DNA of 51,192 nucleotides, from positions 1 through 51,192 of the forward strand of contig CAYRHS010000001.1 of the NCBI GenBank assembly GCA_964424125.1. Direction: 5' to 3'. The notes under the pieces are model-generated. The model was not told the DNA's origin, did no database searches, and saw only the letters and a program-made list of their open reading frames with translations. Each line of letters begins with the position of its first letter. The stretch's first letter is position 1. Below, in pieces: positions 1,082-49,762 of this stretch. A program made the position numbers and the translations under genes. The DNA comes from an uncultured Burkholderiales bacterium (GTDB taxonomy: Bacteria; Actinomycetota; Acidimicrobiia; IMCC26256; JAOSJL01).

Positions 1082-2518
1082 TCAGGCCCCGCAGTCCGCC
1101 CCCATCTGCACCGCCCACTGGGTCAGCTCGTTGGCCAATTCGGGGTCGAGCTCGCTGGCTTCGTCGAGTATCTGCGTACCGACACGATCGTAGAGGTCGA
1201 GCGACGCGTCCGCGACGCACGTCGCCACCTCTTCGTCACCCGACTCGCCGTAGACCTCCGCATACGACGAGGCGCGCAGCGCGAGCAACCCCGACGCCTC
1301 GGCGCCGCCGCCTGTTCCCTTCGGCACATTCGCGCCCGGGTCGCACGACCGGACCGACACTGCGTCCCCCGTCCGTTCGGTCGAGGCCGCGCCCGACGGC
1401 ATCGCGGCCGCCCAGTCCGCGAGCGCGTCGGCGATCTCCGTCGTGTTCGCTTCGCCGTCCCCGACGAACGTGCCCTGCAGGCAGATGCGGTCATCCTCCC
1501 GGAAGATGACGTAGGAGTCGCCGTTCCAGCCGAGCGCTGCATCGACCGTCCGACGGGGCTCGATGCGCTCGCCGAGCATGATCGCCAGGGTGAGCATGCC
1601 GAAGTCGCCCGAGCCGACCTCCTCCGCAGCAGCGTCGAGGGCGGGGGTCGCAACGTCCGCCGGCGTGTCACCGCCCAGGAACGCGGTCGGATCGATCACC
1701 TGCTCCTCGGAGCGTGGAGGGGCCTCGAAGAGCCGATTACGCCCCGCGTCGCCCCACCGTTCCTCGGCGACCCAGACCAGCGGCGGGCCGAAGGTGTAGG
1801 GAGCGCTCTCGCCCAGGAGCACGGCCTCAGGAACCGCCGCGAGATCGGCCCCTTCGATCTCCCCGGACTCCTCCTCCGCATATCGATCCTGCTGGGCCGC
1901 AGGCAGCGATTCGACGTACGCCTGCTCGGTGGTCACGGCGTCTCCCTCGGAGACCGACCGGAGCGCGAACACCTCGCCATCGGTGAGGTCGTTCTCCTCG
2001 AACGCGCGGCCGAGATCGAAGTGCTGGTCGTCGAGCGCGTGGGTCAGCTCGTGCACGACCGTTCCCCGCACGTACGGGGACAGGCCGACGCCCTTGACGA
2101 CGAGTCGCTCCGCTTCGTAGTCGTAGAAACCGACGGTTCCCTCTCCGCCGTACTCCTGGACGACCTCCTTGGCGTCGAACTCGGACGAAACGAGACCCAT
2201 CGCGCGCATCGCGGCGAAGAAGTCGGCGAGGTCCGCGAGCGCTTGATCATCTAGCTCCGCCTGCTGGCGGAAGCTCCTCGTGTAGGCGTCGGCGTCGACG
2301 AACTCGACCTCGACCGGGTGATCGAAGTCGAGGCCGCGCTCGCGTTCCACGAATTCGGCAAGGCGCTCGATCTCCGGATCCCAGGTGACATCGTCCCCGA
2401 GCGGGTCGAGAACGACGAACGCCGCCGCCGCCAGCGCGACCACCGCCACGATCGACCCGAGCGCGATGGGCCACCGCCGACGCTTCGGCGGCGGCGGACT
2501 CTGCCACTCCGGCACCAT
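1082..2518 (-). CDS. membrane-anchored putative zinc metalloprotease (HExxH)
   Basis: 478-aa ORF. N-terminal basic stretch plus one TM segment (WPIALGSIVAVVALAAAAFVV). VHELTHALDDQHF contains HExxH. Codon usage is typical of the window. Confidence 0.6.
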   Translation of the reverse strand: MVPEWQSPPPPKRRRWPIALGSIVAVVALAAAAFVVLDPLGDDVTWDPEIERLAEFVERERGLDFDHPVEVEFVDADAYTRSFRQQAELDDQALADLADFFAAMRAMGLVSSEFDAKEVVQEYGGEGTVGFYDYEAERLVVKGVGLSPYVRGTVVHELTHALDDQHFDLGRAFEENDLTDGEVFALRSVSEGDAVTTEQAYVESLPAAQQDRYAEEESGEIEGADLAAVPEAVLLGESAPYTFGPPLVWVAEERWGDAGRNRLFEAPPRSEEQVIDPTAFLGGDTPADVATPALDAAAEEVGSGDFGMLTLAIMLGERIEPRRTVDAALGWNGDSYVIFREDDRICLQGTFVGDGEANTTEIADALADWAAAMPSGAASTERTGDAVSVRSCDPGANVPKGTGGGAEASGLLALRASSYAEVYGESGDEEVATCVADASLDLYDRVGTQILDEASELDPELANELTQWAVQMGADCGA

Positions 2519-2626
2519 GGCCCAGGGCGGCGCGGGCGTGCTCGGCGCCGCCGGTGGCGGAGCGAGGGCCCTTGTGGAGCGCTCGGAACCACGGGCGCGT
2601 TTTCCGAGCCGGGCGACACACTCCGT

Positions 2627-2711
2627 GCCTGTGGAGGGGGTGGTCGTTCGTCAGGCCCCAAGCGATGGCCCTACCGCGGGCAGCGTTCGATCGTGTGGGA
2701 GGGGATGATCG
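2627..2711 (-). ncRNA. candidate 6C-like element: two hairpins with C-rich loops in the long leader of the protease gene
   Basis: On the minus strand, CGATC/GATCG stem (2711-2688) has loop AUCCCCUCCCACAC. GCCUG/CAGGC stem (2656-2627) has a loop containing CCACCCCCUCC. The unit spans about 85 nt. No covariance model was run. Confidence 0.25.
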
Positions 2712-2817
2712 TGGTGCAGATCCGGCAGCGACGAATCTCGTCTCGACGCACACGCCTCCGATCGGTCGGAACCGCTACTGTCCCATTCGGACGGTTCCGG
2801 GAGGAATCGAGGGTTTA

Positions 2818-2823
2818 ATTCTA
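2818..2823 (-). promoter_or_regulatory. candidate -10 hexamer TAGAAT
   Basis: GGGTAGAATTAAACCC on the minus strand is the only AT-rich patch in the 335-bp gap between the phosphatase stop (2854) and the protease start (2518). No convincing -35 was seen. Confidence 0.25.
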
Positions 2824-2853
2824 CCCTTTACGCACCGGGCGCCGGCCGCGACC

Positions 2854-3441
2854 TCAGACGCCCGCGAGGTGCCCGGTCTCGTTGAAGCTCAGCAGGCGCG
2901 GACCGACACCCACGCGGGTCACCGACGCGACCGAGAGCAAGGCGCGGAACGCGACCTCGTCGCCCACGCCGAGTGACCAGGCCAGCGCGGCTTTGATCGG
3001 CGACACATGGCTCACCGCGACGACGAGCCCTGCTCCTGCCGCCCCGTCGAGCTGCTCCTCGGAGAACGCGACGACGCGCGCCCGCACCGAGCGCAAGCTC
3101 TCACCGCCCGGCGGGGCGAAGTCGGGATCGTCGCGCCAGCGCCGCCAGTCGGACGCGGGGACGTCGGCGACGGGCCGGCCGTCCCACTCCCCGTAGTCGA
3201 GTTCGACGAGGCGGTCGTCGACGACGACGTCGACGCCGGCGGCATCGGCGATCGCCGCGGCGGTGTGCCGGGCGCGGGCGAGCGGGCTGGCCAGCACCAT
3301 CACGGGTTCCTCGGCTCCGAGTGCCCGTCCGACTGCAGTCGCCTGTCGGCGACCTCGGTCCGTCAACGCCGCGTCGAGCAAGCCTCCCAGTCGCCCCTGC
3401 TCGTTGTGCTCGCTCTCGCCGTGACGTACGAACGCGATCAC
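2854..3441 (-). CDS. histidine phosphatase family protein (phosphoglycerate mutase / CobC-like)
   Basis: 195 aa. N-terminal FVRHGESEHN (RHG catalytic motif) and a later SH motif (AVSHVSP). ATGA start/stop overlap with the upstream gene at 3438-3441. Confidence 0.8.
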   Translation of the reverse strand: MIAFVRHGESEHNEQGRLGGLLDAALTDRGRRQATAVGRALGAEEPVMVLASPLARARHTAAAIADAAGVDVVVDDRLVELDYGEWDGRPVADVPASDWRRWRDDPDFAPPGGESLRSVRARVVAFSEEQLDGAAGAGLVVAVSHVSPIKAALAWSLGVGDEVAFRALLSVASVTRVGVGPRLLSFNETGHLAGV

Positions 3442-8023: not shown

Positions 8024-8270
8024 TCGCCGTCGGGGTTTGACCGTCCGTTCACACTGCGGTGACCCCATCGTCACCTGCGAGCGCGACACTGGCCCGCGTT
8101 GGCCCACGACCGGAGCCGTGTCATTCCGCCGACCGCCGCGAGGGCGTCGCTTTCGACGAGCATGCGGGGACTACGAGACGACATCGAGACCGTCGTGAGT
8201 TCGGTCCTGTGCCTGCTCGGGACCGTCGCGGCAACGTAGCGCGCCGCGCCCCTGATCCGGCGCCGGTCGC

Positions 8271-23253: not shown

Positions 23254-23270
23254 TGTGAACGAGCGTTAGC
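23254..23270 (+). promoter_or_regulatory. operator-like motif copy 2 (TGTGAACGAGCGTTAGC)
   Basis: Ends 10 nt before the P450 GTG start, immediately upstream of the GGGAGG SD. Confidence 0.5.
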
Positions 23271-23280
23271 CTCGGGAGGC

Positions 23281-24492
23281 GTGCTCGCGCTCGACCTCCT
23301 GAACTCGGCTCATCTCGACGACCCGTACCCCACGTACCAGCGTCTGCGGGCCGCGGGGCGGGTCGTGGCCCTCGACGACCGGCGCTTCGTGGTCACCAGC
23401 TACGGCACGGCGGCCGAGGTCCTTCGTGATCACGAGACGTTCTCGTCTCGTCGATCCATCGCGGTGGCGGAAGAGTTCTTCCGCCGTGAGGGCGGCACCG
23501 ACATGGCGGGCGCGATGGGTGCGCCGACCAAGCGCTACCGCACGATCATCTCCTCCGATCCGCCGGACCACACCCGGATCCGGAGCGCGGCGCGCGCGCC
23601 GTTCCTGCCGAGCGCCGTCGCGGCGCAGGAGCCGAAGGTGCGCGCCGTGGCCGAGGCATGCGTCGCCGATCTCCTCGACGCCGCATCCCGCGGCGACGCG
23701 GACTTCGTGCGCGACGTGGCGTTCCCGCTCCCGGTCATCGTGATCGCCGATCTGCTCGGCGCTCCACGCGACCGTCGCGAAGACTTCAAGCGCTGGTCGG
23801 ACAATCTGGCGGCCGCGGGCGCCTCGGTCGAGAACGCGAGCGCCGCGGTGGGCGCCGAGATGTTCGAGTTCTTCGATCATCTCGTCGCTGATCGCCGACA
23901 ACAGCCGCGCGACGACATCGTGAGCTCCCTCCTGGAGCAGGCGGGCGACGATCTCGACCCGATCGAGATCGTCGTCTTCTGTCAGATTCTGTTGATCGCC
24001 GGCAACGAGACGACCACGAACCTCCTCGGCAACTGGTGCTCGTGCGTCCTCCTCGAACGTCCGGACCTCGCAACGAGGCTCGGCAACGCTCCGGGGCGCA
24101 TCCCGCCGACCATCGAGGAGGCGTTGCGCTTCGAATCCCCGTTCCAGGGCACCATGCGCACTGCGACCCGTGACGCGGACGTCGCCGGGACACGCATCCC
24201 GTCGGGATCGTCTGTTCTGGTGCTCCTCGGAGCCGCGAACCGGGACCCTGCCGTGTTCCCCGAGGCCGACTCCTTCGTCGCCGACCGCGAACCGAACGAG
24301 CACCTCGCGTTCGGATCAGGGATCCACTCCTGCCTCGGTGCGTGGCTCGCTCGCCTCGAAGCGCGCGTCCTCGCCGAGACCGTGACTCGCCTCCTCCGCT
24401 CCGTGGTTCTCCGAGGGTCTCCGGAACGAAGCCGATCTGGACTTCTGCGAGGATTCCGCACCCTCCCCGTCCACGCCGAGCCGGCCGCGTGA
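23281..24492 (+). CDS. cytochrome P450
   Basis: 403 aa. AGNETT I-helix, ExxR (EEALRF), heme loop FGSGIHSCLG. Confidence 0.9.
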   Translation: MLALDLLNSAHLDDPYPTYQRLRAAGRVVALDDRRFVVTSYGTAAEVLRDHETFSSRRSIAVAEEFFRREGGTDMAGAMGAPTKRYRTIISSDPPDHTRIRSAARAPFLPSAVAAQEPKVRAVAEACVADLLDAASRGDADFVRDVAFPLPVIVIADLLGAPRDRREDFKRWSDNLAAAGASVENASAAVGAEMFEFFDHLVADRRQQPRDDIVSSLLEQAGDDLDPIEIVVFCQILLIAGNETTTNLLGNWCSCVLLERPDLATRLGNAPGRIPPTIEEALRFESPFQGTMRTATRDADVAGTRIPSGSSVLVLLGAANRDPAVFPEADSFVADREPNEHLAFGSGIHSCLGAWLARLEARVLAETVTRLLRSVVLRGSPERSRSGLLRGFRTLPVHAEPAA

Positions 24493-25685
24493 ACCCCATC
24501 GACCTTCTCGACCCGCAGCATCTCGAGGATCCCTACCGCACCTACGCCCGGCTGCGGTCGGACGGGCCGGTCGTGGATCTGGGCGACGAACGGTTCCTCG
24601 TCGCCGACCACGCGACGGTCACCGCCGTGTTGCGTGATCACGAGACGTACTCGTCCGAGTCGACCGGAGCCGACCGCGACTTCTTCGTGCCGGAGAAGCC
24701 TGCGGCGACGGTCTCGCTCGGCTCGGGCGAGGATTTCCGACTGCTCATCCGCTCCGATCCACCCGACCACACGAGGCTCCGCCAGCTCGTGCGAGGTCCG
24801 TTCACGCCGTCGGCCATCGCGAGGTTGGAGCCACGTGTTCGGGCCATCGCGCACGCCTGCGTCGACGACCTGATGACCCAAGACCTCGACGGGAACGCCG
24901 ATTTCGTCCGCCAGGTGGCCTTCCCACTTCCGGTCATCGTCATCGCCGAGCTGCTCGGAATCCCTCCGGAGCGCCGCTCCGACTTCAAGCGCTGGTCCGA
25001 CAACCTTGCGCTGTCGGTGGCCTCGACCAACGACCCGAGTCTCCAGGTCGCGGCCGAGATGTTCGAGTTCTTCGATCAACTCGTGGCCGAGCGACGCGGC
25101 CGCCCTGGGGAGGATCTCGTGAGCCGTCTCCTGACGGACGCGAGCGGCGAGCTCACCACGGTCGAGATCGTCGTCTTCTGCGAGCTGCTCCTCATCGCAG
25201 GCAACGAAACGACGACGAACCTCCTGGGGAGCTGGGTACAAGCCTGCTTCGACCATCCCGAAGCCGCCGCCGCGCTCCGGGCCGATCGCGATCTCGCGCC
25301 CTCGGCCATCGAGGAGGCGTTGCGCTACGACTCGCCGGTGCAGGGGACTCTCCGGCGCGCAACCCGCGACACAGAGTTGGGTGAGATGCCGATCTCCAGG
25401 GGCGCCCGCCTGCTCGTTCTCCTCGGGGCTGCGAACCGCGACCCGGCCGTGTTCCCGGAGCCCGACCGCTTCGATCCGCGGCGGAATCCAACCGAGCATG
25501 TCGCCTTCGGCTCGGGTATCCACTTCTGCCTCGGTGCCGGGCTCTCCCGGCTCGAGGCCCGCGTGCTCGCCGACGTCGCAAGAACGAAGGTCCGGAGCCT
25601 TCGGCCGAGCGGACCGCCCACGCGCACCGGCTCCGCGTTGGTGCGTGGCTTCCAGTCGATGCCTGTAAGGGTGGAACCGGCGTGA
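24489..25685 (+). CDS. cytochrome P450 (tandem paralog)
   Basis: GTG 24489 overlaps the TGA of the first P450 (GTGA). AGNETT, EEALRY, FGSGIHFCLG. N-termini of the two are clearly homologous. Confidence 0.9.
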   Translation: MNPIDLLDPQHLEDPYRTYARLRSDGPVVDLGDERFLVADHATVTAVLRDHETYSSESTGADRDFFVPEKPAATVSLGSGEDFRLLIRSDPPDHTRLRQLVRGPFTPSAIARLEPRVRAIAHACVDDLMTQDLDGNADFVRQVAFPLPVIVIAELLGIPPERRSDFKRWSDNLALSVASTNDPSLQVAAEMFEFFDQLVAERRGRPGEDLVSRLLTDASGELTTVEIVVFCELLLIAGNETTTNLLGSWVQACFDHPEAAAALRADRDLAPSAIEEALRYDSPVQGTLRRATRDTELGEMPISRGARLLVLLGAANRDPAVFPEPDRFDPRRNPTEHVAFGSGIHFCLGAGLSRLEARVLADVARTKVRSLRPSGPPTRTGSALVRGFQSMPVRVEPA

Positions 25686-30333: not shown

Positions 30334-30649
30334 GAACCTCTACCTCCTCGGCCTGACGGTGGGGCTCCCCATGGATCCCGCACAGTGTCAACCTCGTGAT
30401 GTCTTCGCCGCCTCGACTTTGGGGCGCCCATCGCCCGACCCCACATCTGCGACCGACGTCACCTCGCGACCGCGAGAGGCGCCGCCTCGGTGGCGTCCAC
30501 CGGCGGGACGGAACAGCGGTGCGGATATGCGGTAGGTCCCCGACGAGCTCGACGAATCGAACAGATGGACAAGCCCCGATGTCGAGCCTGTCGAGCTCGT
30601 TGCGGGTTGCGAGGACTGCCGGCGCTTTGACCTCAGAAGTTCGCCGTAA

Positions 30650-30666
30650 GCTAACGATCGTTCACA
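30650..30666 (-). promoter_or_regulatory. operator-like motif copy 3 (TGTGAACGATCGTTAGC on the minus strand)
   Basis: Lies in the 416-bp divergent gap, 84 nt upstream of the acyl-CoA synthetase start. The core AACGATCGTT is a perfect palindrome. Confidence 0.5.
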
Positions 30667-30749: not shown

Positions 30750-32303
30750 GTGTGGCCGGGACCGCTCGCTGAGAAACATCCCGACAAGCCAGCTGTGATC
30801 ATGGCGGGAAGTGGTGACGTCGTCACCTACCGCCAGCTCGACGATCGCTCCAACCAGCTCGCCCAGCTCCTGGCCGAGACCGGGCTCGGCTTCGGCGACC
30901 ACGCGGCGTTCTTGATGGAGAACAACGATCGGTTCCACGAGGTCTCTTGGGCAGCCCAGCGCTCGGGCCTCTACTACACCCCCATCAACACGCACTTCAC
31001 CGCCGAGGAGGCTGCCTACATCATCGACGACTGTGACGCCCGGGCGCTGATCGTCTCCAACGCCCAGCGGCAGGTCGCCGCCGCGCTGCTCGACCTCCTC
31101 CCGGACCTTGTCGAGACCCGCCTCATCGTCGGCGGCACGCTGGAGGGCTACGCGCCCTACGAGGACGCGATCGCCCGCCAGCCCGCCGAGCCGATCGCCG
31201 AGGAGCTCGAAGGTCACGCCATGCTCTACTCGTCGGGCACCACCGGCAAGCCCAAGGGCGTCAAGTACGGACTCGAGCGCACACCGATCGGGAACACGCC
31301 CGGGATGATCGAGGCCTTCCGGATCCTCTACGGCTTCGACGAGAGCTGCGTGTACCTGTCCCCCGCCCCCCTCTACCACTCGGCTCCGCTCCAGTTCACG
31401 ATGCTGACGCTACGGCTGGGCGCCACCGTGGTGGTGATGGAGCACTTCGACCCGGTGCTGGCGCTCGAGCACATCGAGAAGTACCGCGTCACTCACAGTC
31501 AATGGGTACCGACGATGTTCGTGAGAATGCTCAAGCTGCCGGAGGAGCAGCGGGCCGGCTACGACCTCTCGTCGCACAAGCACGCGATCCACGGCGCCGC
31601 CCCGTGCCCGGTCCCGGTGAAGGAGCAGATGATCGAGTGGTGGGGTCCGATCATCCACGAGTACTACGGCGCGACCGAGGGGATCGGCGCCACCTTCATC
31701 TCCAGCGAGGAGTGGCTTGCCCACAAGGGCTCGGTCGGCAAGTCGGCCCTGGGCCCTCTCCACGTGCTCGACGACGACGGCAACGAGCTCCCGCCCGGAG
31801 AGGTGGGCGTGGTGTGGTTCGAGGGCGACACCACCCCGGTCTCGTTCGAGTACCACAAGGACGAGGAGAAGACCCGAGGCGCCCACAACGAGAAGGGTTG
31901 GGCGACGACCTTCGACGTGGGATACCTCGACGGGGACGGCTACCTCTACTTGACCGACCGCAAGAACTTCATGGTCATCTCGGGTGGGGTGAACATCTAC
32001 CCGCAAGAGGCCGAGAACCTCCTCGTCACCCATCCCAAGGTCATGGACGCGGCCGTCTTCGGCATTCCCAACGAGGAGATGGGCGAGGAGGTCAAGGCGG
32101 TCGTGCAGCCGCTGAACGTGAGCGACGCCGGTCCCGAGCTGGAGCGAGAGCTCAGCGCCTTCTGCCGCGAGCACCTCGCCCACTTCAAGTGCCCCCGGTC
32201 GATCGACTTCGAAGCCGAGCTGCCCCGCGACGACACGGGCAAGCTCTTCAAGCGGCTGCTCAGGGACCGCTACTGGGCCAACCAATCGTCGCGGATCGTC
32301 TGA
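30750..32303 (+). CDS. acyl-CoA synthetase (AMP-forming)
   Basis: 517 aa. GGGGGAG upstream of the GTG. YSSGTTGKPKGV, YGATEG, GYLDGDGYLYLTDRK. Confidence 0.9.
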   Translation: MWPGPLAEKHPDKPAVIMAGSGDVVTYRQLDDRSNQLAQLLAETGLGFGDHAAFLMENNDRFHEVSWAAQRSGLYYTPINTHFTAEEAAYIIDDCDARALIVSNAQRQVAAALLDLLPDLVETRLIVGGTLEGYAPYEDAIARQPAEPIAEELEGHAMLYSSGTTGKPKGVKYGLERTPIGNTPGMIEAFRILYGFDESCVYLSPAPLYHSAPLQFTMLTLRLGATVVVMEHFDPVLALEHIEKYRVTHSQWVPTMFVRMLKLPEEQRAGYDLSSHKHAIHGAAPCPVPVKEQMIEWWGPIIHEYYGATEGIGATFISSEEWLAHKGSVGKSALGPLHVLDDDGNELPPGEVGVVWFEGDTTPVSFEYHKDEEKTRGAHNEKGWATTFDVGYLDGDGYLYLTDRKNFMVISGGVNIYPQEAENLLVTHPKVMDAAVFGIPNEEMGEEVKAVVQPLNVSDAGPELERELSAFCREHLAHFKCPRSIDFEAELPRDDTGKLFKRLLRDRYWANQSSRIV

Positions 32304-32331
32304 TGCCGATCCCGGTCGAACAGCTGAAGGA

Positions 32332-33519
32332 CTAGGCCGGCTCCGAGCCCACGATCGAGACGAAGCTGACGCACTCGCCCGGTGCACCGCCGAGATTGTG
32401 GGTGAGGCCGAGCTTCTTGCCGCTGGTGATCTGGCGCTCCCCGGCCTCGTCCCGGAGCTGGAGCCAGCACTCGAAGAGCATCCGCAGCCCGGACGCACCG
32501 ATCGGGTGACCGAAGCTCTTCAGCCCGCCGTCGGGGTTCACCGCGAGCTCGCCGTCGAGGTCGAAGGTGCCGGCGAGCACCTCTTTCCACGCCGTGCCGC
32601 GCTCGGCGAAGCCGAGGTCCTCCATGAGCACGAGCTCGGTCGGGGTGAAGCAGTCGTGCACCTCGGCGAGCGCCAGTTCTGCACGCGGATCGTCGACACC
32701 CGCCTGCGTGTACGCGTCCTGTGACGAGCGCACGACCTCCTCGAACGTCGTGTAGTCGTAGTCGGGGTCGATCGGGCCGTCGGCGGGGCCGGCGACGAAG
32801 GAGAGCGCCTTCACGTAGATCGGGTGATCGGTGTACCGGTGGGCGTCCTCGGCCCGCACGATCACCGCCGCCGCCGAACCGTCGCTCACGCCGGAACAGT
32901 CGAAGATGCCGAGCTGGCCCGCGATGAGCGGCGAGTTGCAGATCACGTCCTTGGGGATCTCGCGCTGGAACTGCGCCCTCGGGTTGAGGGCACCGTTCTT
33001 GTGGTTCTTCCAGGCGATGCGCGTGAGGACGTCCTTCATCTCGGCCTCGTCGACGCCGTACTTCTTGCGGTAGGCGGGCGCGAGCAGGCTGAACATCGCA
33101 GGCGCGGTCAGCTCGACCTGTGTGCCGTCACTGGGCGGAGGCGTCATCGTCAACCCCGAGAAGCCCGAGTCCTTCAGCTTCTCGACGCCGACGGCCATGA
33201 CGGTGTCGTAGGCGCCCGACGCGACCGCGTAGCAGGCGTTCCGGAACGCCTCCGAGCCCGTGGCGCACATGTTCTCGAGCCGGCTCACCGGCTTGTAGTC
33301 CAGGTGCAGAGGGCGCGACAGCGTCAGCCCGCTGATGCCCGAACCCATCGTCCCGAGCCAGTAGGCGTCGATGTCGTCGGCCGAGACGCCTGCGGAGTCC
33401 ATCGCCTCGACCGTGGAGTCGGTGACGAGGTCGTCGACGCCCTTGTCCCAGTGCTCGCCGAAGGGCGTACAGCCCATCCCCACGATCGCCACTCGGTCGC
33501 GGATCCCATGCGATGCCAT
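32332..33519 (-). CDS. SCP-x / lipid-transfer-protein type thiolase
   Basis: 395 aa. VAIVGMGCTPFG start, nucleophile block ENMCATGSEA, C-terminal HNLGGAPGECV. Confidence 0.85.
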   Translation of the reverse strand: MASHGIRDRVAIVGMGCTPFGEHWDKGVDDLVTDSTVEAMDSAGVSADDIDAYWLGTMGSGISGLTLSRPLHLDYKPVSRLENMCATGSEAFRNACYAVASGAYDTVMAVGVEKLKDSGFSGLTMTPPPSDGTQVELTAPAMFSLLAPAYRKKYGVDEAEMKDVLTRIAWKNHKNGALNPRAQFQREIPKDVICNSPLIAGQLGIFDCSGVSDGSAAAVIVRAEDAHRYTDHPIYVKALSFVAGPADGPIDPDYDYTTFEEVVRSSQDAYTQAGVDDPRAELALAEVHDCFTPTELVLMEDLGFAERGTAWKEVLAGTFDLDGELAVNPDGGLKSFGHPIGASGLRMLFECWLQLRDEAGERQITSGKKLGLTHNLGGAPGECVSFVSIVGSEPA

Positions 33520-33522
33520 CGT

Positions 33523-34938
33523 TCAGCCCCTCTCCGGTCGGGCTTTCCAGAAGTAATTGTGCACCCCGTCGACCGACGAGATGCGGCGGAAGGTCATGTG
33601 CACGCGATCGCCGATCGCCACCGTGGCCGCGTCGACGTCGGTCAGCTCGCACTGGTAGCGGCCGCCACCGTCGAAGTCGAGCACCGCCGCGACCACGGGC
33701 GGGTTGAGCGACGGTGCGAGCCGATCGAGCGTGAACGTCGCCACCGTCGCCGGAACGTCGGCCAGCGGCTCGTCGACCATCTTGTCGACGGCCTTGCACT
33801 GCACGCAGACCCGTGACGGCGGCAGGTTCCGTGTGCCGCATTCGGTGCAACGGCTGGCCACGAACCCGAACTTCCAGTCCTCGCGGCGCAACGCGGGTGG
33901 GGCTGCGGGCGAGATCGGATCCGGTCGTCGCGGCTGCTCCCGCACCAGGGCCTCGCGCCACGTGAGGAACGTGGGATACGTCAGGTCGTCACGACCCGCC
34001 GCAACCTGCTCCGCCACCGCGGGCTGTGCCCGATGGTCGGCGAGCGCGTCCGTCGTTCGGAAGACGAGCACATCGGCGCCGTCGGCCAGGACCACGAGCG
34101 CGATCGTCTCGCCCGGCTCGGCGACGTCGAGGACGGAGCCGAGCAGCGTTGCGGGGTGCGCAGTGCCGGTGTTCCCCACGGTCTGGCCGAGGTCGTCGAC
34201 CGCGGCTTCCGGGCGGGCGCCGCTGCGCTTGAGCGTCGCACGGACGGCACGGGCCTGTGGGCCCGTCACGATCAGCCGATCGAGCGAGTCCGGCGTCGCG
34301 TCGGCCGCCTTCAACGCGTCGGTGACGGCACGCTCGGCCAGCGGCGCGTAGGCGAACTCGCCGAAGCGCTCTTCCCACACGTTGGAATACCGACGCCCCG
34401 GCACCCGCCACCGATCCATGAACTCTGCGGTCGCGGAGCCACTGCCCACGAGCTCGGCCAGGACCGGCGCCTCGCCGCCCTCCGGGCCGCAGACGATCGC
34501 AGCGGCACCGTCGCCCCCGTCACGTTCGTCGGCGCCACCTGCCCGCCCGGTCCGCATGTCGGAGGTGACGACCATCGTCGTGTGATTCGCGTCGAGCGCG
34601 ATCCGCAGCGCCCCCACTCCCGAGCGCACGGCACCACCGAAGTCGTATGCCGCGGTGACCTCCGGCAACCCGAGCGCGACGTGCACCGCGCTCGCGTTGG
34701 TCTTGTCCAGGTACGCGGGGCTTGCCGTGGCGAAGGCGAGCACGTCGGGAACGACCGAGTCGGGCAGGCCCCGCAACGCGATCCGGCCCGCTTCGACGCC
34801 CATCGTCGTCGTGTCCTCGTCGTACGAGGCCACGGCGCGCGTGCCCGGCGCCGGGACGGTCCCCAACGACTCGGCGATCGCGCTACGCGGGAGACGGAAG
34901 AAGGGGATGTAGGACCCGTACGCCAAGATCCCAGCCAT
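33523..34938 (-). CDS. HMG-CoA-synthase-like domain fused to DUF35 (zinc ribbon + OB fold)
   Basis: 471 aa. N-domain has YGSYIPFFRL, SYDEDTTTMGVEAG and GDGAAAIV. C-domain has CTECGTRNLPPSRVCVQC followed by an OB-fold-like region. Only 3 nt separate it from the thiolase gene. Confidence 0.8.
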   Translation of the reverse strand: MAGILAYGSYIPFFRLPRSAIAESLGTVPAPGTRAVASYDEDTTTMGVEAGRIALRGLPDSVVPDVLAFATASPAYLDKTNASAVHVALGLPEVTAAYDFGGAVRSGVGALRIALDANHTTMVVTSDMRTGRAGGADERDGGDGAAAIVCGPEGGEAPVLAELVGSGSATAEFMDRWRVPGRRYSNVWEERFGEFAYAPLAERAVTDALKAADATPDSLDRLIVTGPQARAVRATLKRSGARPEAAVDDLGQTVGNTGTAHPATLLGSVLDVAEPGETIALVVLADGADVLVFRTTDALADHRAQPAVAEQVAAGRDDLTYPTFLTWREALVREQPRRPDPISPAAPPALRREDWKFGFVASRCTECGTRNLPPSRVCVQCKAVDKMVDEPLADVPATVATFTLDRLAPSLNPPVVAAVLDFDGGGRYQCELTDVDAATVAIGDRVHMTFRRISSVDGVHNYFWKARPERG

Positions 34939-34977
34939 GCATGACCTCTCGATCGCGGATGCGTCGCGCTCCTCAGT

Positions 34978-34994
34978 GTAAACAGGCGTTCACA
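34978..34994 (-). promoter_or_regulatory. operator-like motif copy 4, degenerate (TGTGAACGCCTGTTTAC on the minus strand)
   Basis: Lies 40 nt upstream of the HMGS-like/DUF35 start. 12/17 match to the consensus, with the left arm intact. Confidence 0.3.
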
Positions 34995-35012
34995 GGGACG
35001 GCCAAGCGCGGA

Positions 35013-36530
35013 TCAGGCGACGGCGTCGTCGCCCGCAGACCGGGTGACGCGACCCTCCGTCGATTCGGCCGACTTCGACGACTTCGCCGGGTCGGTCTTT
35101 TTGCCTTTGGAGCCGCTCGCCTTCGTCTTGCGGAGCGCCTTTGCGGCCTTGCGGAGCTCGCGTAGCGCCACGGGGATGCCGTCGGCGATCCGCGAGGGCT
35201 CGGGGACCGCCTCGCGGCAGGCCAGGAAGCCGAAGTCGATCGTGTCGATGTAGCTGACCACCGTCGCGTTCAGGCCGCTGCCGTAGAGCAGGGGCCCCAT
35301 CGGCCACAGCGCCTCGAGCTTCATCCCGGCGACGTAGAGCGGGAACGGCGGGCCGGGTACGTTCGAGATGATGAGGTTGTAGACGGGCGGGACCTGGCCC
35401 TCGAGGCCGGCCCCGGTGTAGGTCCGAGCCGCGAGCGCGAGCAGACCCGGTGGCGTGGTGTCGGTGAGGTTCATGATCTTCGTGGCCGCCATCGCGCGCT
35501 GCATCTCCTTCGAGGCCTGGGTGCCCCGATGGATCGCCCGGAGCCGGTCGGCGGGGTCCGCGACGTCGGTCGCCAGCGACGTGAACATCGCTCCGACCTT
35601 GGTCCCGACCGCTTCTTTCGACTCGTCGGTGTGCAGCGACACGGGGACCTGGGCGACGAGCGGGTCGGCGGGGAGCTCGTTGCCGGCTTCGAGGTACCGG
35701 CGGAGCGCACCGGCACAGAGCGCGAGCACGACGTCGTTGAGCTTGACGCCGAACGCGTCCTTGATCGCCTTCACGTCGTCGAGCGGGACGGAGCTGTACG
35801 CGAAGCGGCGGTGGGGGCTGATGACCCGGTTGATCGACGTGCGTGGGGCACGGAACGGCGCCGCGGGCGATTCGTCCCGGCGCATGAAGCTGGCGAACGT
35901 CTGCCCCTGCCGTGCGAGCTGGGGGACGAACCTCGCGATGCGCCACGGCGTCACGACGGTCCGACCGAGGCCCCGGAGGAACAGCTCCGCGCCGCTCGGG
36001 ACCCGCTCGGACCGCGTCGACCGTGCGGGCGGCACCTCGCCGGGTGGCGGGTCCGGCTCGAGGTCGAAGAGCTTGTCGAAGAGCCCGACACCCGTGACGC
36101 CGTCGATGATCGCGTGATGGATCTTGGCCAGCATCGCGATGCGGCCGCCCTCCATCCCCTCGATGACCCAGAACTCCCAGAGCGGGTGGGCCCGGTCGAG
36201 CCGGTAGCTCACGAGGTCCCCCACGAGGTTCCCGAGCTCTTCGGACCCGCCCGGCGGCGGGACCGCGATGCGCCGCAGGTGGTAGTCGAGGTCGAAGTCG
36301 GGGTCCTGGACGAAGACCGGGTTGTCGAGCCCGAAGGGCACCTCCAGCAGCTTCCACGTGAACTGGGGCGCGAGATGGAGCCGGCTGGCGAAGGCGTCGC
36401 GGAGGCGATCGAAGCTGTAGCCGTGGGGTGAGGTGGAAGGGTCGAGCACGACGACGCCCGACACGTGCATGAGCCACGAGTTCGTCTCCCCGTACAGGAA
36501 GGCCGCGTCCACCCCGCTCGCCCGATGCAT
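35013..36530 (-). CDS. wax ester synthase/diacylglycerol acyltransferase (WS/DGAT)
   Basis: Trimmed to ATG 36530. HHAIIDG active-site motif. Lys-rich C-terminal tail. Confidence 0.85.
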   Translation of the reverse strand: MHRASGVDAAFLYGETNSWLMHVSGVVVLDPSTSPHGYSFDRLRDAFASRLHLAPQFTWKLLEVPFGLDNPVFVQDPDFDLDYHLRRIAVPPPGGSEELGNLVGDLVSYRLDRAHPLWEFWVIEGMEGGRIAMLAKIHHAIIDGVTGVGLFDKLFDLEPDPPPGEVPPARSTRSERVPSGAELFLRGLGRTVVTPWRIARFVPQLARQGQTFASFMRRDESPAAPFRAPRTSINRVISPHRRFAYSSVPLDDVKAIKDAFGVKLNDVVLALCAGALRRYLEAGNELPADPLVAQVPVSLHTDESKEAVGTKVGAMFTSLATDVADPADRLRAIHRGTQASKEMQRAMAATKIMNLTDTTPPGLLALAARTYTGAGLEGQVPPVYNLIISNVPGPPFPLYVAGMKLEALWPMGPLLYGSGLNATVVSYIDTIDFGFLACREAVPEPSRIADGIPVALRELRKAAKALRKTKASGSKGKKTDPAKSSKSAESTEGRVTRSAGDDAVA

Positions 36531-36584
36531 CGCCGGTTCCCCCGCGCTCGTGGGTCGCCATCCTCCCACGCCCGGCGCGCGCAT

Positions 36585-37817
36585 TCAGAGCCCGACCGGG
36601 CCCGCACAGTCCTCGCCCGAGACCGCTTGGGTGAAACCACCGGTCGTGGGTTGCGGCTCGCCCTCCGCATCGAGGCGGACGAGCAGCACACACCCCTGGA
36701 AGATGCGCGGCAGCCCGGCGACACCCCCTCGGGTGAAGTCGACCGGCGGAGCGAGCCCGGCCGGGTCGGCCGAGACGGCGGTCTCGAGCACCTCGAGGAG
36801 CTCGCCGCCCGTCGTCGCCCCCGAGGCCCGGAGCAGATCGGCCACCATGACGACCGCGGCATAGGTCCGCTCACGCGCCCCGCCGAGCTCCTCGACCCCG
36901 CTCGCGGCCATCGTCTCGACGAAGCCGTCGGTGAGTGGCGTTCCGAGGTCGACCGGAACCACTTCGGCCGACCGGAGGATCCCCGCCGCGGCCGACCCCA
37001 GCGCGGCCACGACGTCGTCGACCTCGGTCGCCGCCAACCCGATCGTGACTGCGGGATCTCCCTCCCGCAGCCCGATCACCGCGTTCGTCGCCTGGAGGCC
37101 GGGCAGCCCCACGACCACGCCGTCCGCCCCCGAGGTCAGAGCGGCCGCGACGTAGGGCGACATGTCGACCGCACCGGGAGGGACCGGGACGTCGGCCGCG
37201 ACGGTTGCGCCGAACGGTCCCAGCACCATGCGCCCGAACTGCTGGATCGCGGCGCCGGCGGCGAAGTCGGGGCGCACGATCGCGACGCTCCGCGCCCCCG
37301 CCTCGGCGAGGGAGCGCAAGAGTGCGGCCGAGTCGACGACGAACCCGCCCCACGCGGGGAACGAGACCGGCGACGTGAAGTCGGCCGCCGAGGTCGGCGT
37401 GCCCCCCACGACGGGGACGTCGTTCGCCTCCATGAGCGGGAACCACTCGGCGGTCAGCAGCGACCACGAACCGGCGACCGCGACCGCACCCGCATCGATT
37501 GCCTCCCGTCCGCAGGCCGCGGCGGTGTTCGGGTCGTTGCGGGTGTCGCAGATCAGCGCTTCGAGTCGACGGCCGTCGACGCCGCCTTCGTCGTTCACTG
37601 CCGCGACCGTCGCCTCGACGGCCTCGGGAATCTCCGGGAGCGCGATCCCGGCCGAGAACTCGCCGATCGTGGCGATCATGATCGGCGGACCCATGGGTTC
37701 CTGCCCGCCGACAGAGTCGTGGACGGGCTCTGAGTCGTCCTCACCACCCCCACAGGCGGCGGCCACGAGGATGCAGGTCACGAGCACGGCCGCGATCTCA
37801 CGCCGTCCCCGGCTCAT
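36585..37817 (-). CDS. LivK-type (Peripla_BP_6-like) solute-binding lipoprotein, orphan
   Basis: Start ATG 37817 (alternative 37844). Lipobox VAAACGGG. About 45% identical by eye to the binding protein at 48476-49717. No permease is adjacent. Confidence 0.8.
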   Translation of the reverse strand: MSRGRREIAAVLVTCILVAAACGGGEDDSEPVHDSVGGQEPMGPPIMIATIGEFSAGIALPEIPEAVEATVAAVNDEGGVDGRRLEALICDTRNDPNTAAACGREAIDAGAVAVAGSWSLLTAEWFPLMEANDVPVVGGTPTSAADFTSPVSFPAWGGFVVDSAALLRSLAEAGARSVAIVRPDFAAGAAIQQFGRMVLGPFGATVAADVPVPPGAVDMSPYVAAALTSGADGVVVGLPGLQATNAVIGLREGDPAVTIGLAATEVDDVVAALGSAAAGILRSAEVVPVDLGTPLTDGFVETMAASGVEELGGARERTYAAVVMVADLLRASGATTGGELLEVLETAVSADPAGLAPPVDFTRGGVAGLPRIFQGCVLLVRLDAEGEPQPTTGGFTQAVSGEDCAGPVGL

Positions 37818-37882
37818 GTGCGTCGGCTTTGCCACGAGGGCCATCGCACGCTCCAGGTGGTCTCGGCTTCCCGACCGCGCCC

Positions 37883-39721
37883 CTACCCTGGCGCCCGCCG
37901 CCGCCGCAGCTCGAACGCGAGCGCCAGCTTCGCCACGCCCAGGGCCAGGAGCCCGAGGGCCGTCGCCCAGAACACGAGCACGACACCGGGCTCGTACGCC
38001 CACACGAGCGACCAGTTCGCCTCCATGAGCCGGGGCACCCCGAGCAGGAGGATCGGAAGCGCGAGGTTGACGGCCAGTCCCCCGACGACGGCCCGGACCA
38101 TCCGACCCCGGCCGCCGGAACGTGTTCGAATACGTCGGCGTCCGAGGCCGGCGGCATCGCCGACGACCAGTGCGACGAGCGCGACGCTGACGAGCCCCAC
38201 GACCACCAGGTTCCACGCCGCCCGGCCGCCGACGGTGGGCGCGAGGTCTTCCCCCGTGACGATCGCGAGCGCGCCGTCCGCGATCGGCGGTGCCGGCTGG
38301 GCGAACGCCGCTTGTCGGTTCACCAGCACGACCACGCCCCAGCCGGTGTCCGGTCGGAGCCGCATCCCCGCCGAGAACTGGGGCGCGGTGCCGTCGTGGC
38401 CGATCGTGACCGTGCCGTCGTCCTCGTCCACGTCGCGAGCCCAGCCGAGGCCGTAGAACGAGGTCGGGTCCTCGTCGTCGGGATCGGTGGGCACGACCTC
38501 CTCGTGGAGGGCGCGGATCCCCTCGGCGGACAGCACCTGAGCGTCACCGAGACGGCCGTCGTTCAGCTGTGCGATCAGGTAGGCGGCCATGTCGGCCGCC
38601 GACGACGAGATGCCCCCCATCGGCACCGCACCGTCGATGATGGTCGTGCCGAACGGCAGCGGGGCGCCCCACCAGTCCCGATAGCCCGTCGCGAGCCCCG
38701 AGGCGTGCGCGTCGTCGTTGCCGGCTGAGGTCGAGGTCATCCCGAGCGGCGCGAAGACCTTCTCCTCCATGTACTCCTCGTAGGGCCTCCCGGTCACGGC
38801 CTCGACGATCGCACCGGCGACCTGGAAGTTGACGTTCGAGTAGCGCCACTCGGTGCCGGGCGGATCGTGGAGCTCGTAGTCGGCTGCCTTGCGCACGTCC
38901 TCCTCGATGGAGTGCTGCGTGTTGCGCTCGATGAGGTTCCAACCCTGCGGCGTCGTGAACCCGCTGGTCTGGTTCAGGAGCTGCCGCACGGTCATGGTTG
39001 CGGACGCCTCCTCGTCGGCGACCTCGAACCAGGGAAGGTACTCCTGCACGGGGGCATCGAGATCCACCTCCCCTGCCTCGACCAGCTGCAGGACCGCGAG
39101 CGCGGTGAAGCCCTTGCTGACCGAGGCCATGACGAACGACGTGTCGGGCGTGATGGGCTCCCGGTCCGGCCCCGCGACCCCGTAGCCCCGCACGACGGCG
39201 GGTCGGTCGCCGTGCACCACCGCGACCGCGAGGCCGGGCAGCCGGAAAGCCTCGAGCTCGCCACGCAGGAAGTCCTCGAGCGCTGCGACCTGCTCGCTCG
39301 ACAGACCCGACGCCTCGGCCTCCTCGTCGCCCGTTCCCGTGACCGGGACGTCGGGCCCGGGCAGGAGCGGGGCGACGACCAGGCCGAGCACGAGCGCGCA
39401 CGTCGTGATGAGCCGCCCCCACCGGTCGTCCGTGCTCGCCGCGAGCCAGGCGAGCGCGCTCCCGAGCAACGCGTATCCGGCGAAGACGAGGAACCGCAGC
39501 CAACGGCCGTCGGGTGCGGACGCGGCGCCGACCGCGGCCAGGAAGAGTGCCAGCCATCCCCCCACGGCCGCCGAACGCGGCCGCGCCCACCAGCCGACCG
39601 CGGCCAACGCCACGGCCCCCGGGAGCACGAGCCACCAACGCAATCCCACCGCGCCCGCGAGCACACCCGCCGACCCCGCCAGGAGCACCACAGCCCAGAC
39701 CCGGAGCCGGCGGCGCGTCAC
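37883..39721 (-). CDS. polytopic membrane protein with central beta-lactamase-fold serine hydrolase domain
   Basis: 612 aa. About 4 N-terminal and 3-4 C-terminal TM helices. SxxK as ASVSKGFTALAV. Confidence 0.8.
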   Translation of the reverse strand: MTRRRLRVWAVVLLAGSAGVLAGAVGLRWWLVLPGAVALAAVGWWARPRSAAVGGWLALFLAAVGAASAPDGRWLRFLVFAGYALLGSALAWLAASTDDRWGRLITTCALVLGLVVAPLLPGPDVPVTGTGDEEAEASGLSSEQVAALEDFLRGELEAFRLPGLAVAVVHGDRPAVVRGYGVAGPDREPITPDTSFVMASVSKGFTALAVLQLVEAGEVDLDAPVQEYLPWFEVADEEASATMTVRQLLNQTSGFTTPQGWNLIERNTQHSIEEDVRKAADYELHDPPGTEWRYSNVNFQVAGAIVEAVTGRPYEEYMEEKVFAPLGMTSTSAGNDDAHASGLATGYRDWWGAPLPFGTTIIDGAVPMGGISSSAADMAAYLIAQLNDGRLGDAQVLSAEGIRALHEEVVPTDPDDEDPTSFYGLGWARDVDEDDGTVTIGHDGTAPQFSAGMRLRPDTGWGVVVLVNRQAAFAQPAPPIADGALAIVTGEDLAPTVGGRAAWNLVVVGLVSVALVALVVGDAAGLGRRRIRTRSGGRGRMVRAVVGGLAVNLALPILLLGVPRLMEANWSLVWAYEPGVVLVFWATALGLLALGVAKLALAFELRRRRAPG

Positions 39722-43042: not shown

Positions 43043-43064
43043 CGTCGTCGTTGGACCAGAGGAC

Positions 43065-43080
43065 GTTAACTCAGGTTAAC
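43065..43080. promoter_or_regulatory. AT-rich palindrome GTTAAC-TCAG-GTTAAC
   Basis: Occupies the centre of the 42-bp gap between divergent start codons 43042 (-) and 43085 (+). Confidence 0.35.
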
Positions 43081-43084
43081 TACC

Positions 43085-49717: not shown

Positions 49718-49745
49718 GGCGGTCCCCTGAACGATGGGCGGCCAA

Positions 49746-49762
49746 GTTAGCGCTCGTTCACA
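49746..49762 (-). promoter_or_regulatory. operator-like motif copy 5 (TGTGAACGAGCGCTAAC on the minus strand)
   Basis: Lies 29 nt upstream of the binding-protein start and 28 nt downstream of the ATPase stop. Confidence 0.5.

Follow-up and report, generated by a model that had tools for sequence, protein, structure and literature searches.

The question raised by this locus is what a protein resembling the synthase of 3-hydroxy-3-methylglutaryl-CoA (HMG-CoA synthase, HMGS) can be doing when most of its active site is gone, it is joined to a DUF35 module, and it is encoded immediately ahead of an intact thiolase. The locus lies in a stretch of 51,192 nucleotides from contig CAYRHS010000001.1 (assembly GCA_964424125.1), which is referred to below as the window and has a G+C content of about 70%. 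It comprises two genes on the reverse strand: a pseudo-HMGS-DUF35 fusion gene encoding 471 aa (33523..34938, with its stop codon TGA at 33523-33525) and an SCP2-type thiolase gene encoding 395 aa (32332..33519, Pfam Thiolase_N and Thiolase_C_1). We consider it likely that the two products form a heteromeric thiolase in which the pseudo-HMGS-DUF35 polypeptide is a non-catalytic subunit and, with less assurance, we favor a catabolic role for it on a bulky substrate.

The gene map of the window was obtained by calling open reading frames (ORFs) according to G+C content at third codon positions (GC3), combined with Pfam. Both ORFs stand where the first-pass annotation, which had been made from the sequence without database searches, had placed them, and their GC3 values of 0.88 (fusion) and 0.93 (thiolase) correspond to the third-position bias typical of real genes and give a strong coding signal. 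Residues 1-332 of the fusion protein (33943..34938) align end to end with the NCBIfam archaeal HMGS model PRK04262, but at 133 bits, so that the protein stays under the levels of the archaeal-type HMGS equivalogs (NF003274 / TIGR00748; 133 versus 244 bits and 82.5 versus 353 bits). The Pfam domain ACP_syn_III_C is found at residues 209-287. Among PDB sequences the best match of this N-terminal domain is PhlA (9skh_A, 5.8e-15), followed by the HMGS of M. thermolithotrophicus (6esq_I, 1e-14), with PhlA 5m3k_A and MucA 9vbo_A also matched. An AlphaFold2 model of the fusion protein, built from 48 homologues, is confident over residues 1-330 (mostly pLDDT >90) and poor in the linker (residues 333-358) and the OB fold. 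Foldseek placed PhlA, archaeal HMGS 6et9_I (TM 0.88, rmsd 2.2 Å) and MucA at the top for the N-terminal domain, and ranked HMGS-like subunits of DUF35 complexes (9skh, 6et9/6esq, 5mg5, 9vbo) above free-standing bacterial HMGS and FabH. The HMGS/KAS-III-like fold that had been read from the sequence is thereby confirmed by profile, model and structural comparison.

The N-terminal domain is followed by a Pro/Arg-rich linker (REQPRRPDPISPAAPPALRREDWKFG, residues 333-358, 33865..33942), which has pLDDT <50 in the model and is conserved in close homologues: R333, R337, R338, P339, P341, P347, R351, W355 and K356 are invariant in the close-homologue alignment (A1), and R351 is at least 95% conserved among the distant representatives, that is, 103 full-length proteins representing clusters at 50% identity, which are 32-53% identical to the query. 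The linker leads into the DUF35 module, of which both parts score over Pfam cutoffs as had been expected. The rubredoxin-like zinc ribbon (residues 359-385, 33784..33864) matches zf-ChsH2 (PF12172) at 359-382 with 25.6 bits (cutoff 23.2), and the OB fold (residues 386-471, 33526..33783) matches OB_ChsH2_C (PF01796) at 396-451 with 42.6 bits (cutoff 27.1); residues 355-468 also match the archaeal DUF35 chain 6esq_E (E=8e-6). The codons of the ribbon cysteines, Cys364, Cys367, Cys378 and Cys381, were verified, and all four are invariant in close homologues.

Within the fused family, a large clade lacks all four of these cysteines and carries the motif SRDRSSGA..HLPPxRVSMKGG instead (for example L007:8001-9419, L024:7959-9521 and L083:8995-10398). 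They are lost in 41 of the 53 homologues found on genome contigs and in 26 of the 103 distant representatives, while the CxxC...CxxC pattern is retained in the window protein and those closely related to it. The cysteines are invariant in A1 yet present in only 12 of 53 loci, which is due to two real clades, one having lost them, and in part of the family the DUF35 zinc site is thus dispensable.

The catalytic positions of the HMGS-like domain were located by two independent alignments, one made with HMMER to 6esq_I and the other with MAFFT, including M. thermolithotrophicus HMGS and PhlA. The catalytic tetrad of the archaeal enzyme is E82/C114/H238/N270 (Nat Commun 2026;17:2196, PMC12960953), and as this reference numbering was reproduced exactly, the alignment register can be regarded as validated. 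E82 corresponds to Ala72 (MAFFT; codon 34723-34725) or Thr71 (HMMER), in the context FATASPAY versus GSESHPY. C114 corresponds to Val104 (34627-34629; GGAVRSG versus EFACKAG) and H238 to Thr225 (34264-34266; LIVTGP versus CVFHQP), whereas N270 is retained as Asn256 (34171-34173); the codons given here were verified. Three of the four tetrad residues, namely the nucleophile and both acid/base residues, are therefore lost. The absence of the Cys and the His had been noticed at first pass, but the accompanying view that the catalytic-Glu region is kept has to be abandoned: it is the Glu of GSES that is replaced, and the conserved DEDTT stretch does not hold the catalytic Glu.

No Glu, Cys or His occupies the respective tetrad columns in any of the 53 genome-contig homologues, where these columns consist of A/T/S/P, V/L/P/A/I/T and T/A/S/C/V, nor in any of the 103 distant representatives. 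The three residues are likewise absent from the homologues of Rhodococcus DK17, Novosphingobium ES2-1 and Haloferax volcanii, and PhlA shows a similar loss, its tetrad positions being occupied by C, G, Q and D. The sole cysteine of the N-terminal domain, which the first-pass annotation had pointed out in IVCGPEGG, is C150, a residue that the family consensus does not conserve. An active HMGS with shifted catalytic residues was considered and rejected, given two alignments without Glu, Cys or His and a lone Cys150 that is not conserved. The alignments show a domain that, to judge by its residues, cannot form the acetyl-cysteine intermediate.

The thiolase has kept the nucleophile that had been recognized in it, Cys85 (33265-33267), together with His288-Asp-Cys290-Phe (32647-32658) and the histidine of Gly-His338-Pro (32506-32508). 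Cys85 (in NMCATGS), HDCF and GHP are each conserved in 67 of 69 orthologues. The protein passes the NCBIfam equivalog NF004810, 'acetyl-CoA acetyltransferase', with 602.8 bits against a cutoff of 403. Its best PDB match is the putative acyl-CoA acyltransferase 4yzo_A (202 bits, 1.7e-58); the thiolase of the archaeal complex, 6esq_A, scores 196 bits (7.7e-57), and the SCP2-thiolase type-1 6hsj_A matches at 4e-42. HDCF is known as the SCP-2 thiolase fingerprint (PMC12329534). Motifs and profiles together show a predicted SCP2-type thiolase with a complete catalytic set.

The junction between the two genes reads ...GGAGAGGGGC-TGA-ACG-ATG..., the thiolase ATG lying 3 nt past the fusion stop as reported at first pass, and a Shine-Dalgarno-like sequence for the thiolase, GGAGAGGGG (33527..33535, reverse strand), can be read within the 3' end of the fusion gene. 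On this reading of the junction the pair is translationally coupled. Across 33517-33528 the two ORFs share a frame with TGA-ACG between them, and hypothetical readthrough of one stop would yield an 868-aa polypeptide of three modules. Pairing was counted, as were neighboring genes, over 80 loci: an orthologous thiolase (60-91% identical) is encoded downstream on the same strand in 78 of them and within 200 nt in 70, and the two loci without it have <550 nt of contig remaining. The gap between fusion and thiolase is 10 nt or less in 22 of the 46 loci in which both ORFs were called, 3 nt being the commonest value.

A word-indexed protein search with the fusion protein returned at least 7,809 proteins at E<=1e-5. 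The top 120 are 454-523 aa in length and 60-78% identical, originate mostly from metagenome-assembled genomes (MAGs) of Acidimicrobiia, and are mostly annotated as 'OB-fold domain-containing protein' or 'hydroxymethylglutaryl-CoA synthase'. An exhaustive search of 50%-identity representatives recovered 3,173, 1,851 and 625 clusters at E<=1e-3, 1e-10 and 1e-30, respectively, and a species-level genome scan found at least 481 confirmed relatives. The fused family is present in Actinomycetota, Chloroflexota, Proteobacteria, Firmicutes and haloarchaea. Beyond Acidimicrobiia, the relatives listed include Tamaricihabitans, Amycolatopsis, Frankia, Nonomuraea, Actinomadura, Chloroflexi, Acidobacteria and Deltaproteobacteria, and the Firmicute Falsibacillus is among the named cluster members. 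Full-length homologues are also encoded on megaplasmids of Rhodococcus, Mycobacterium avium, Sphingobium, Novosphingobium, Variovorax, Azoarcus and several haloarchaea, with no Pseudomonas records among the plasmid matches. The possibility that the fusion is a frameshift or an assembly artefact joining two genes, a concern raised at first pass, was rejected, since over 7,800 homologues have a length of about 470 aa and full-length fusion alignments reach down to 32% identity.

The haloarchaeal homologues, found on H. volcanii pHV4 and on plasmids of Natrinema, Halorubrum, Natrialba and Haladaptatus, are fused over their full length at 24-29% identity. On pHV4 (L082, 5808-8536) the two genes are adjacent and their order is reversed, with the thiolase-like gene first. 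Since these proteins are fused, and that of H. volcanii lacks the Glu, Cys and His, fusion and inactivation occur in Archaea as well.

The first-pass annotation knew of no characterized example of this architecture. That statement is outdated, as a representative from P. fluorescens was published in January 2026 (PMC12960953) and a member from an oestrogen-degradation (edc) cluster had been flagged in 2020. The former study mined 1,030 bacterial loci in which HMGS is co-localised with acetyl-CoA acetyltransferase (ACAT) and DUF35, of which 1,001 are without polyketide synthase (PKS) or nonribosomal peptide synthetase (NRPS) neighbors, and the fused type is the dominant class among them. In the P. 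fluorescens complex, PfACAT/HMGS-DUF35, HMGS and DUF35 are fused, the tetrad is lost and the ACAT is intact. The purified complex made neither HMG-CoA nor acetoacetyl-CoA, cleaved acetoacetyl-CoA thiolytically, and nearly lost this activity when the His of HDxF was mutated to Tyr; its authors regard it as intermediate, in evolutionary terms, between the channeling complex of archaea and the Friedel-Crafts acyltransferases PhlACB/MucABC (PMC12960953). The window pair agrees with the Pf-type complex in every architectural respect, and both the architecture and its basic biochemistry are thus already published. The earlier idea of a two-gene machine, in which a dead HMGS joined to DUF35 serves a thiolase, is upheld by the residue mapping, the synteny, the translational coupling and the Pf biochemistry.

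We examined the genomic surroundings of the pair for indications of the pathway in which it acts. De novo clustering of the neighbors across the 80 loci found none universally linked apart from the thiolase. Recurrent neighbors comprise a family III CoA-transferase (33 loci), which mostly lies upstream in divergent orientation, acyl-CoA dehydrogenases (ACADs; 56 copies in 27 loci), short-chain dehydrogenases/reductases (SDRs; 19 loci), a MaoC/FAS1-type hot-dog protein (12 loci) and Amidohydrolase_2 (11 loci). In the window itself Pfam identifies four enoyl-CoA hydratase (ECH) genes, three AMP-dependent (acyl-CoA) ligase genes, and genes for a family III CoA-transferase, an SDR, two cytochromes P450, an FAD-linked oxidase, an MFS transporter and a wax-ester synthase/diacylglycerol acyltransferase (WS/DGAT), in agreement with the CoA-ester context described at first pass.

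Full beta-oxidation modules surround the pair on three replicons, which supports a degradative role. On Rhodococcus sp. DK17 pDK3 (L081) the fusion is accompanied by genes for TetR, a CaiB-type CoA-transferase, two ACADs, an HMG-CoA-lyase-family protein, a split MaoC hydratase, acetyl-CoA acetyltransferase, a second thiolase, an SDR and a crotonase. On Novosphingobium sp. ES2-1 p3 the order ACAD-SDR-fusion-thiolase-ECH-ECH lies inside a steroid-type cluster that also encodes Ltp and an OB-fold protein, a P450, TetR, a FadD3-family ligase, a MaoC pair and VOC dioxygenases. The H. volcanii pair adjoins 3-hydroxyacyl-CoA dehydrogenase, ECH and PaaK. The arrangement of ES2-1 p3 has also been described in the oestrogen-induced edc cluster of N. 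tardaugens, whose authors (2020) could not fit the 'HMG-CoA synthase' EGO55_13555 into the pathway, and neither a review of oestrogen degradation (PMC12507874) nor a further literature search yielded a function assigned to the edc HMGS-like gene. The HMG-CoA-lyase-family gene of pDK3 (2132-3124) lies between the two ACAD genes and adjoins the CoA-transferase and the MaoC pair; in that organism the substrate may be a 3-hydroxy-3-alkyl-acyl-CoA of a branched or terpenoid-like kind.

We propose that the two genes encode two subunits of a DUF35-scaffolded thiolase belonging to the lineage of the archaeal thiolase/HMGS/DUF35 complex. All chemistry would be performed by the 395-aa thiolase, with Cys85 as nucleophile assisted by His288/Cys290 of the HDCF loop and His338 of GHP, and the reaction would be the CoA-dependent thiolytic cleavage of a 3-oxoacyl-CoA. 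Homologous complexes have a core of HMGS-like dimers, to which DUF35 links the thiolase dimers, with a CoA chamber at the HMGS/thiolase interface (PMC12960953 among the sources); the archaeal thiolase alone is insoluble, and MucB requires MucA and MucC. By analogy with the archaeal, PhlACB and MucABC complexes, we infer that the HMGS-like domain would supply the dimeric core and one wall of an interfacial chamber for CoA and substrate, and that the attached zinc ribbon and OB fold would clamp the thiolase dimer on this core and keep it soluble and competent. The pair would be translationally coupled and expressed from a promoter region of its own under operator control. Its most likely role would be to carry out the final step in the beta-oxidation-like breakdown of a non-standard acid, the gene contexts of the family suggesting a bulky, branched, alicyclic or steroid-derived (ring-derived) substrate. 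The quaternary structure, the scaffold and chamber functions and the degradative role on bulky substrates are thus attributed to the window locus by analogy with its relatives.

Several observations weigh against this proposal. The window protein keeps Asn256, while none of the four tetrad residues is reported to remain in the Pf protein, and what links the two is that they agree in architecture and in the pattern of motifs, as opposed to a measured relationship of their sequences. The OB-fold part is poorly modelled, so the subunit interface is taken from homologous structures. The family context is a generic beta-oxidation toolkit that singles out no one substrate, the WS/DGAT gene upstream fits lipid synthesis as easily as catabolism, and pairs of ketothiolase (KT) and DUF35 can act anabolically in archaea, where they take part in fatty-acid synthesis.

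A more far-reaching version of the degradative role, which we hold to be unlikely but worth stating, would make the dead HMGS-DUF35 the hub around which a bacterial metabolon for the beta-oxidation of bulky acyl-CoAs is organized. The vestigial HMGS pocket and the interfacial chamber could hold the CoA while the acyl end moves between the thiolase and docked enzymes of the preceding steps, an SDR-family 3-hydroxyacyl-CoA dehydrogenase and a hydratase, which would be the catabolic mirror image of the archaeal channeling complex. The recurrent SDR, MaoC and ACAD neighbors and the conserved Pro/Arg-rich linker hint at such an arrangement, as does a natural fusion from a Deltaproteobacteria MAG. 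This protein (P0264, 911 aa, outside the window) joins pseudo-HMGS and DUF35 to an SDR (adh_short) and an SCP2 sterol-transfer domain; similar to the eukaryotic peroxisomal MFE-2 and SCPx, it hints at a scaffold that docks the 3-hydroxyacyl-CoA dehydrogenase step.

The neighborhood data also bear on the opposite direction of catalysis, in which the pair would be a condensing (Claisen) biosynthetic ketothiolase that feeds reverse beta-oxidation or storage lipid, with the WS/DGAT using its products. The WS/DGAT gene (35013-36584, reverse strand) lies directly upstream on the same strand and ends 74 nt before the fusion start; the archaeal KT/DUF35 belongs to a fatty-acid synthase complex, and thiolase chemistry is reversible. 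However, apart from the window, this linkage recurs in the two closest relatives only (L001 and L012) and is absent from the other 78 of the 80 loci, where ACAD, CoA-transferase and MaoC neighbors dominate, and an operator-like site sits between the WS/DGAT gene and the pair. PfACAT/HMGS-DUF35 cleaved acetoacetyl-CoA and made none from acetyl-CoA (PMC12960953), and the exergonic HMGS step that pulls the archaeal condensation is dead in the fusion family. We regard a condensing role as improbable.

The conservation of the HMGS-like domain would also be expected if it had acquired a new catalytic or ligand-sensing activity through other residues, making the fusion part of an enzyme with two activities. 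Across phyla, strong purifying selection acts on the domain, and the architecture is kept to about 32% identity; D40-E41-D42, D99 and E138 are at least 95% conserved across the distant representatives, and Asn256 is shared by the window protein and 45 of 53 close homologues. The same acidic residues (DED, AD-x-x-F, ALE) nevertheless occur at the same positions in true HMGS and in PhlA, and so look like inherited structural features. The old active-site columns hold variable small or hydrophobic residues (L/V/A/P, A/S/Y/T) with no new conserved polar set, and the Asn falls to 30 of 103 in the distant representatives. As the Pf complex displayed thiolase chemistry only, dependent on the ACAT His (PMC12960953), we give a second activity very little credence.

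The identity of the thiolase decides between the preferred heteromeric thiolase and two further kinds of DUF35-associated enzymes. The first is a CoA-independent C-acyltransferase of the Friedel-Crafts type, which would pass the acetyl group of acetyl-CoA to a small-molecule acceptor as PhlACB/MucABC do. PhlA is the best sequence and structural match of the N-terminal domain in the PDB, and both PhlA and MucA lack the HMGS tetrad. PhlC/MucB, on the other hand, have lost HDxF and have a remodelled pocket (PMC12960953), whereas this motif is kept in the window thiolase and in nearly all of its orthologues; the window thiolase resembles the archaeal ACAT (196 bits) far more than PhlC (5m3k_C, 91 bits) or MucB (9vbo_E, 65 bits). 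In addition, DUF35 is a separate subunit in PhlACB/MucABC, and no PKS or NRPS gene occurs in the surrounding ~25 kb; none was detected by the Pfam scan of window genes from ~14.9 to 51 kb. A reaction of this type is highly improbable here. Scarcely more credible is a retro-aldolase like Ltp2 or Sal that acts on a 3-hydroxyacyl-CoA, such as a steroid side chain, while held by DUF35: DUF35-bound aldolases of the SCP2 fold do exist in steroid catabolism and family members do occur in steroid/oestrogen clusters, but Ltp2 and Sal have YDHF and YDCY at the HDCF position and Sals and SLPs lack the SCP2-thiolase cysteines (PMC12329534), the aldolase systems fuse DUF35 to a MaoC hydratase and not to an HMGS-like domain, and the ES2-1 cluster has a separate Ltp/OB-fold pair beside the fusion/thiolase pair. 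Among other thiolase-fold chains, BbsB (7pxp_C) scores 127 bits and Ltp2 (6ok1_A) 67 bits. Of the 'thiolase or retro-aldolase' proposed at first pass, the former is retained, as the partner has HDCF and a nucleophilic Cys, and the latter is disfavored.

The operator-like site mentioned above is the palindrome TGTAAACAGGCGTTCACA (34977..34994), a perfect match to TGTNAAC-N4-GTTNACA that lies within the gap between the WS/DGAT and fusion genes, 38 nt upstream of the fusion ATG. With up to two mismatches the motif has six occurrences in the window, where 0.13 would be expected, and none of 100 shuffled sequences reached six. The other five copies have two mismatches each: 8036-8053, 23254-23271 (before a P450 gene), 30649-30666 (between ECH and ligase genes), 43064-43081 (between ECH and CoA-transferase genes) and 49745-49762 (before a solute-binding protein gene). 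All six are intergenic or at a gene start. Upstream of the fusion the site is retained in the closest relatives, with no mismatches in L001 and L012 (58 nt upstream), one in L002 and two in L004, which amounts to 4 of 79 loci versus a background of 11 of 5,808 windows. Given the enrichment in the window and this retention, the shared operator motif noted at first pass is real for this lineage. Its six copies before CoA-ester, P450 and transport genes suggest a lineage-specific regulon. No TetR or other DNA-binding family that could be its regulator was found in the window ORFs scanned, and a promoter and terminator scan of 32200-35150 returned nothing informative.

Downstream of the pair, an acyl-CoA ligase gene (30750-32303, forward strand) is convergent with the thiolase gene. 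Two overlapping forward-strand ORFs, 23281-24492 and 24342-25685, each have a partial Pfam match to cytochrome P450 and are probably tandem P450 genes with mis-set starts; the operator-like site at 23254 precedes them. On the reverse strand, the maximal ORFs for a periplasmic solute-binding protein (36585-38216) and a beta-lactamase-fold protein (37883-39721) overlap by ~330 nt, and since the Pfam match of the former begins at residue 190, translation of that protein probably begins far downstream of the first start codon in frame.

These results have consequences for annotation. Databases routinely label the family 'hydroxymethylglutaryl-CoA synthase' or 'OB-fold protein', which is misleading, and annotating the fusion as a non-catalytic thiolase subunit would keep a false mevalonate-pathway or ketogenic step out of genome-scale models. 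The same reading would explain the unassigned 'HMG-CoA synthase' of oestrogen and steroid catabolic clusters. What is new here is that the gene contexts argue for working parts of beta-oxidation-like pathways, where the published account describes an orphan evolutionary intermediate.

In comparison with known systems, the closest to the window pair is PfACAT/HMGS-DUF35, which likewise consists of two genes with a fused HMGS-DUF35, lost HMGS residues, a thiolase with Cys, HDxF and GHx, and no PKS or NRPS neighbors; the window pair differs in being an Acidimicrobiia-type member. The archaeal thiolase/HMGS/DUF35 complex is homologous in all three modules (6esq_A, 6esq_I and 6esq_E) and keeps the thiolase HDxF, but its HMGS is active and pulls an unfavorable condensation, whereas that of the window is dead. 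It also consists of three polypeptides and is anabolic, serving the mevalonate pathway, in contrast to the two polypeptides and probably catabolic role of the window pair.

PhlACB of P. protegens and MucABC of Streptococcus (5M3K/5MG5, 9SKH, 9VBO/9VBT) share with the window pair a tetrad-less, HMGS-like, non-catalytic core that DUF35 bridges to a catalytic subunit of the thiolase fold. Unlike the window system, they have a PhlC/MucB subunit without HDxF, acylate acceptors other than CoA, carry DUF35 on a separate chain and are encoded in PKS/NRPS clusters.

DUF35 is also the obligatory partner of an SCP2-fold enzyme that cleaves C-C bonds in the benzoylsuccinyl-CoA thiolase BbsAB, in ChsH2-Ltp2 and in Shy-Sal, all of which operate in beta-oxidation-like pathways with a family III CoA-transferase, ACAD, hydratase and SDR. 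These systems contain no HMGS-like module, however, and their DUF35 either stands alone, as in BbsA, or is joined to a MaoC hydratase, as in ChsH2 and Shy; in the Ltp2 and Sal aldolases the HDCF of the window thiolase is moreover replaced.

Finally, the edc genes EGO55_13555/EGO55_13550 of Novosphingobium (Caenibius) tardaugens and their counterparts on ES2-1 p3 resemble the window locus in that an 'HMG-CoA synthase'/'OB-fold' gene adjoins genes for acetyl-CoA acyltransferase, 3-hydroxyacyl-CoA dehydrogenase and ACAD. The fused protein of ES2-1, homologous over its full length at 34% identity, lacks the Glu, Cys and His, and the ES2-1 thiolase is 46% identical to that of the window, with HDCF and GHP. 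The ES2-1 protein has lost the zinc-ribbon cysteines that the window protein keeps, and the edc genes belong to a cluster for the oestrogen A/B rings that also encodes extradiol dioxygenases and a FadD3 ligase, while the window is without such ring-cleavage genes. Whereas the Pf complex was presented as an intermediate without a pathway, the gene contexts considered here point to a beta-oxidation-like catabolic role.

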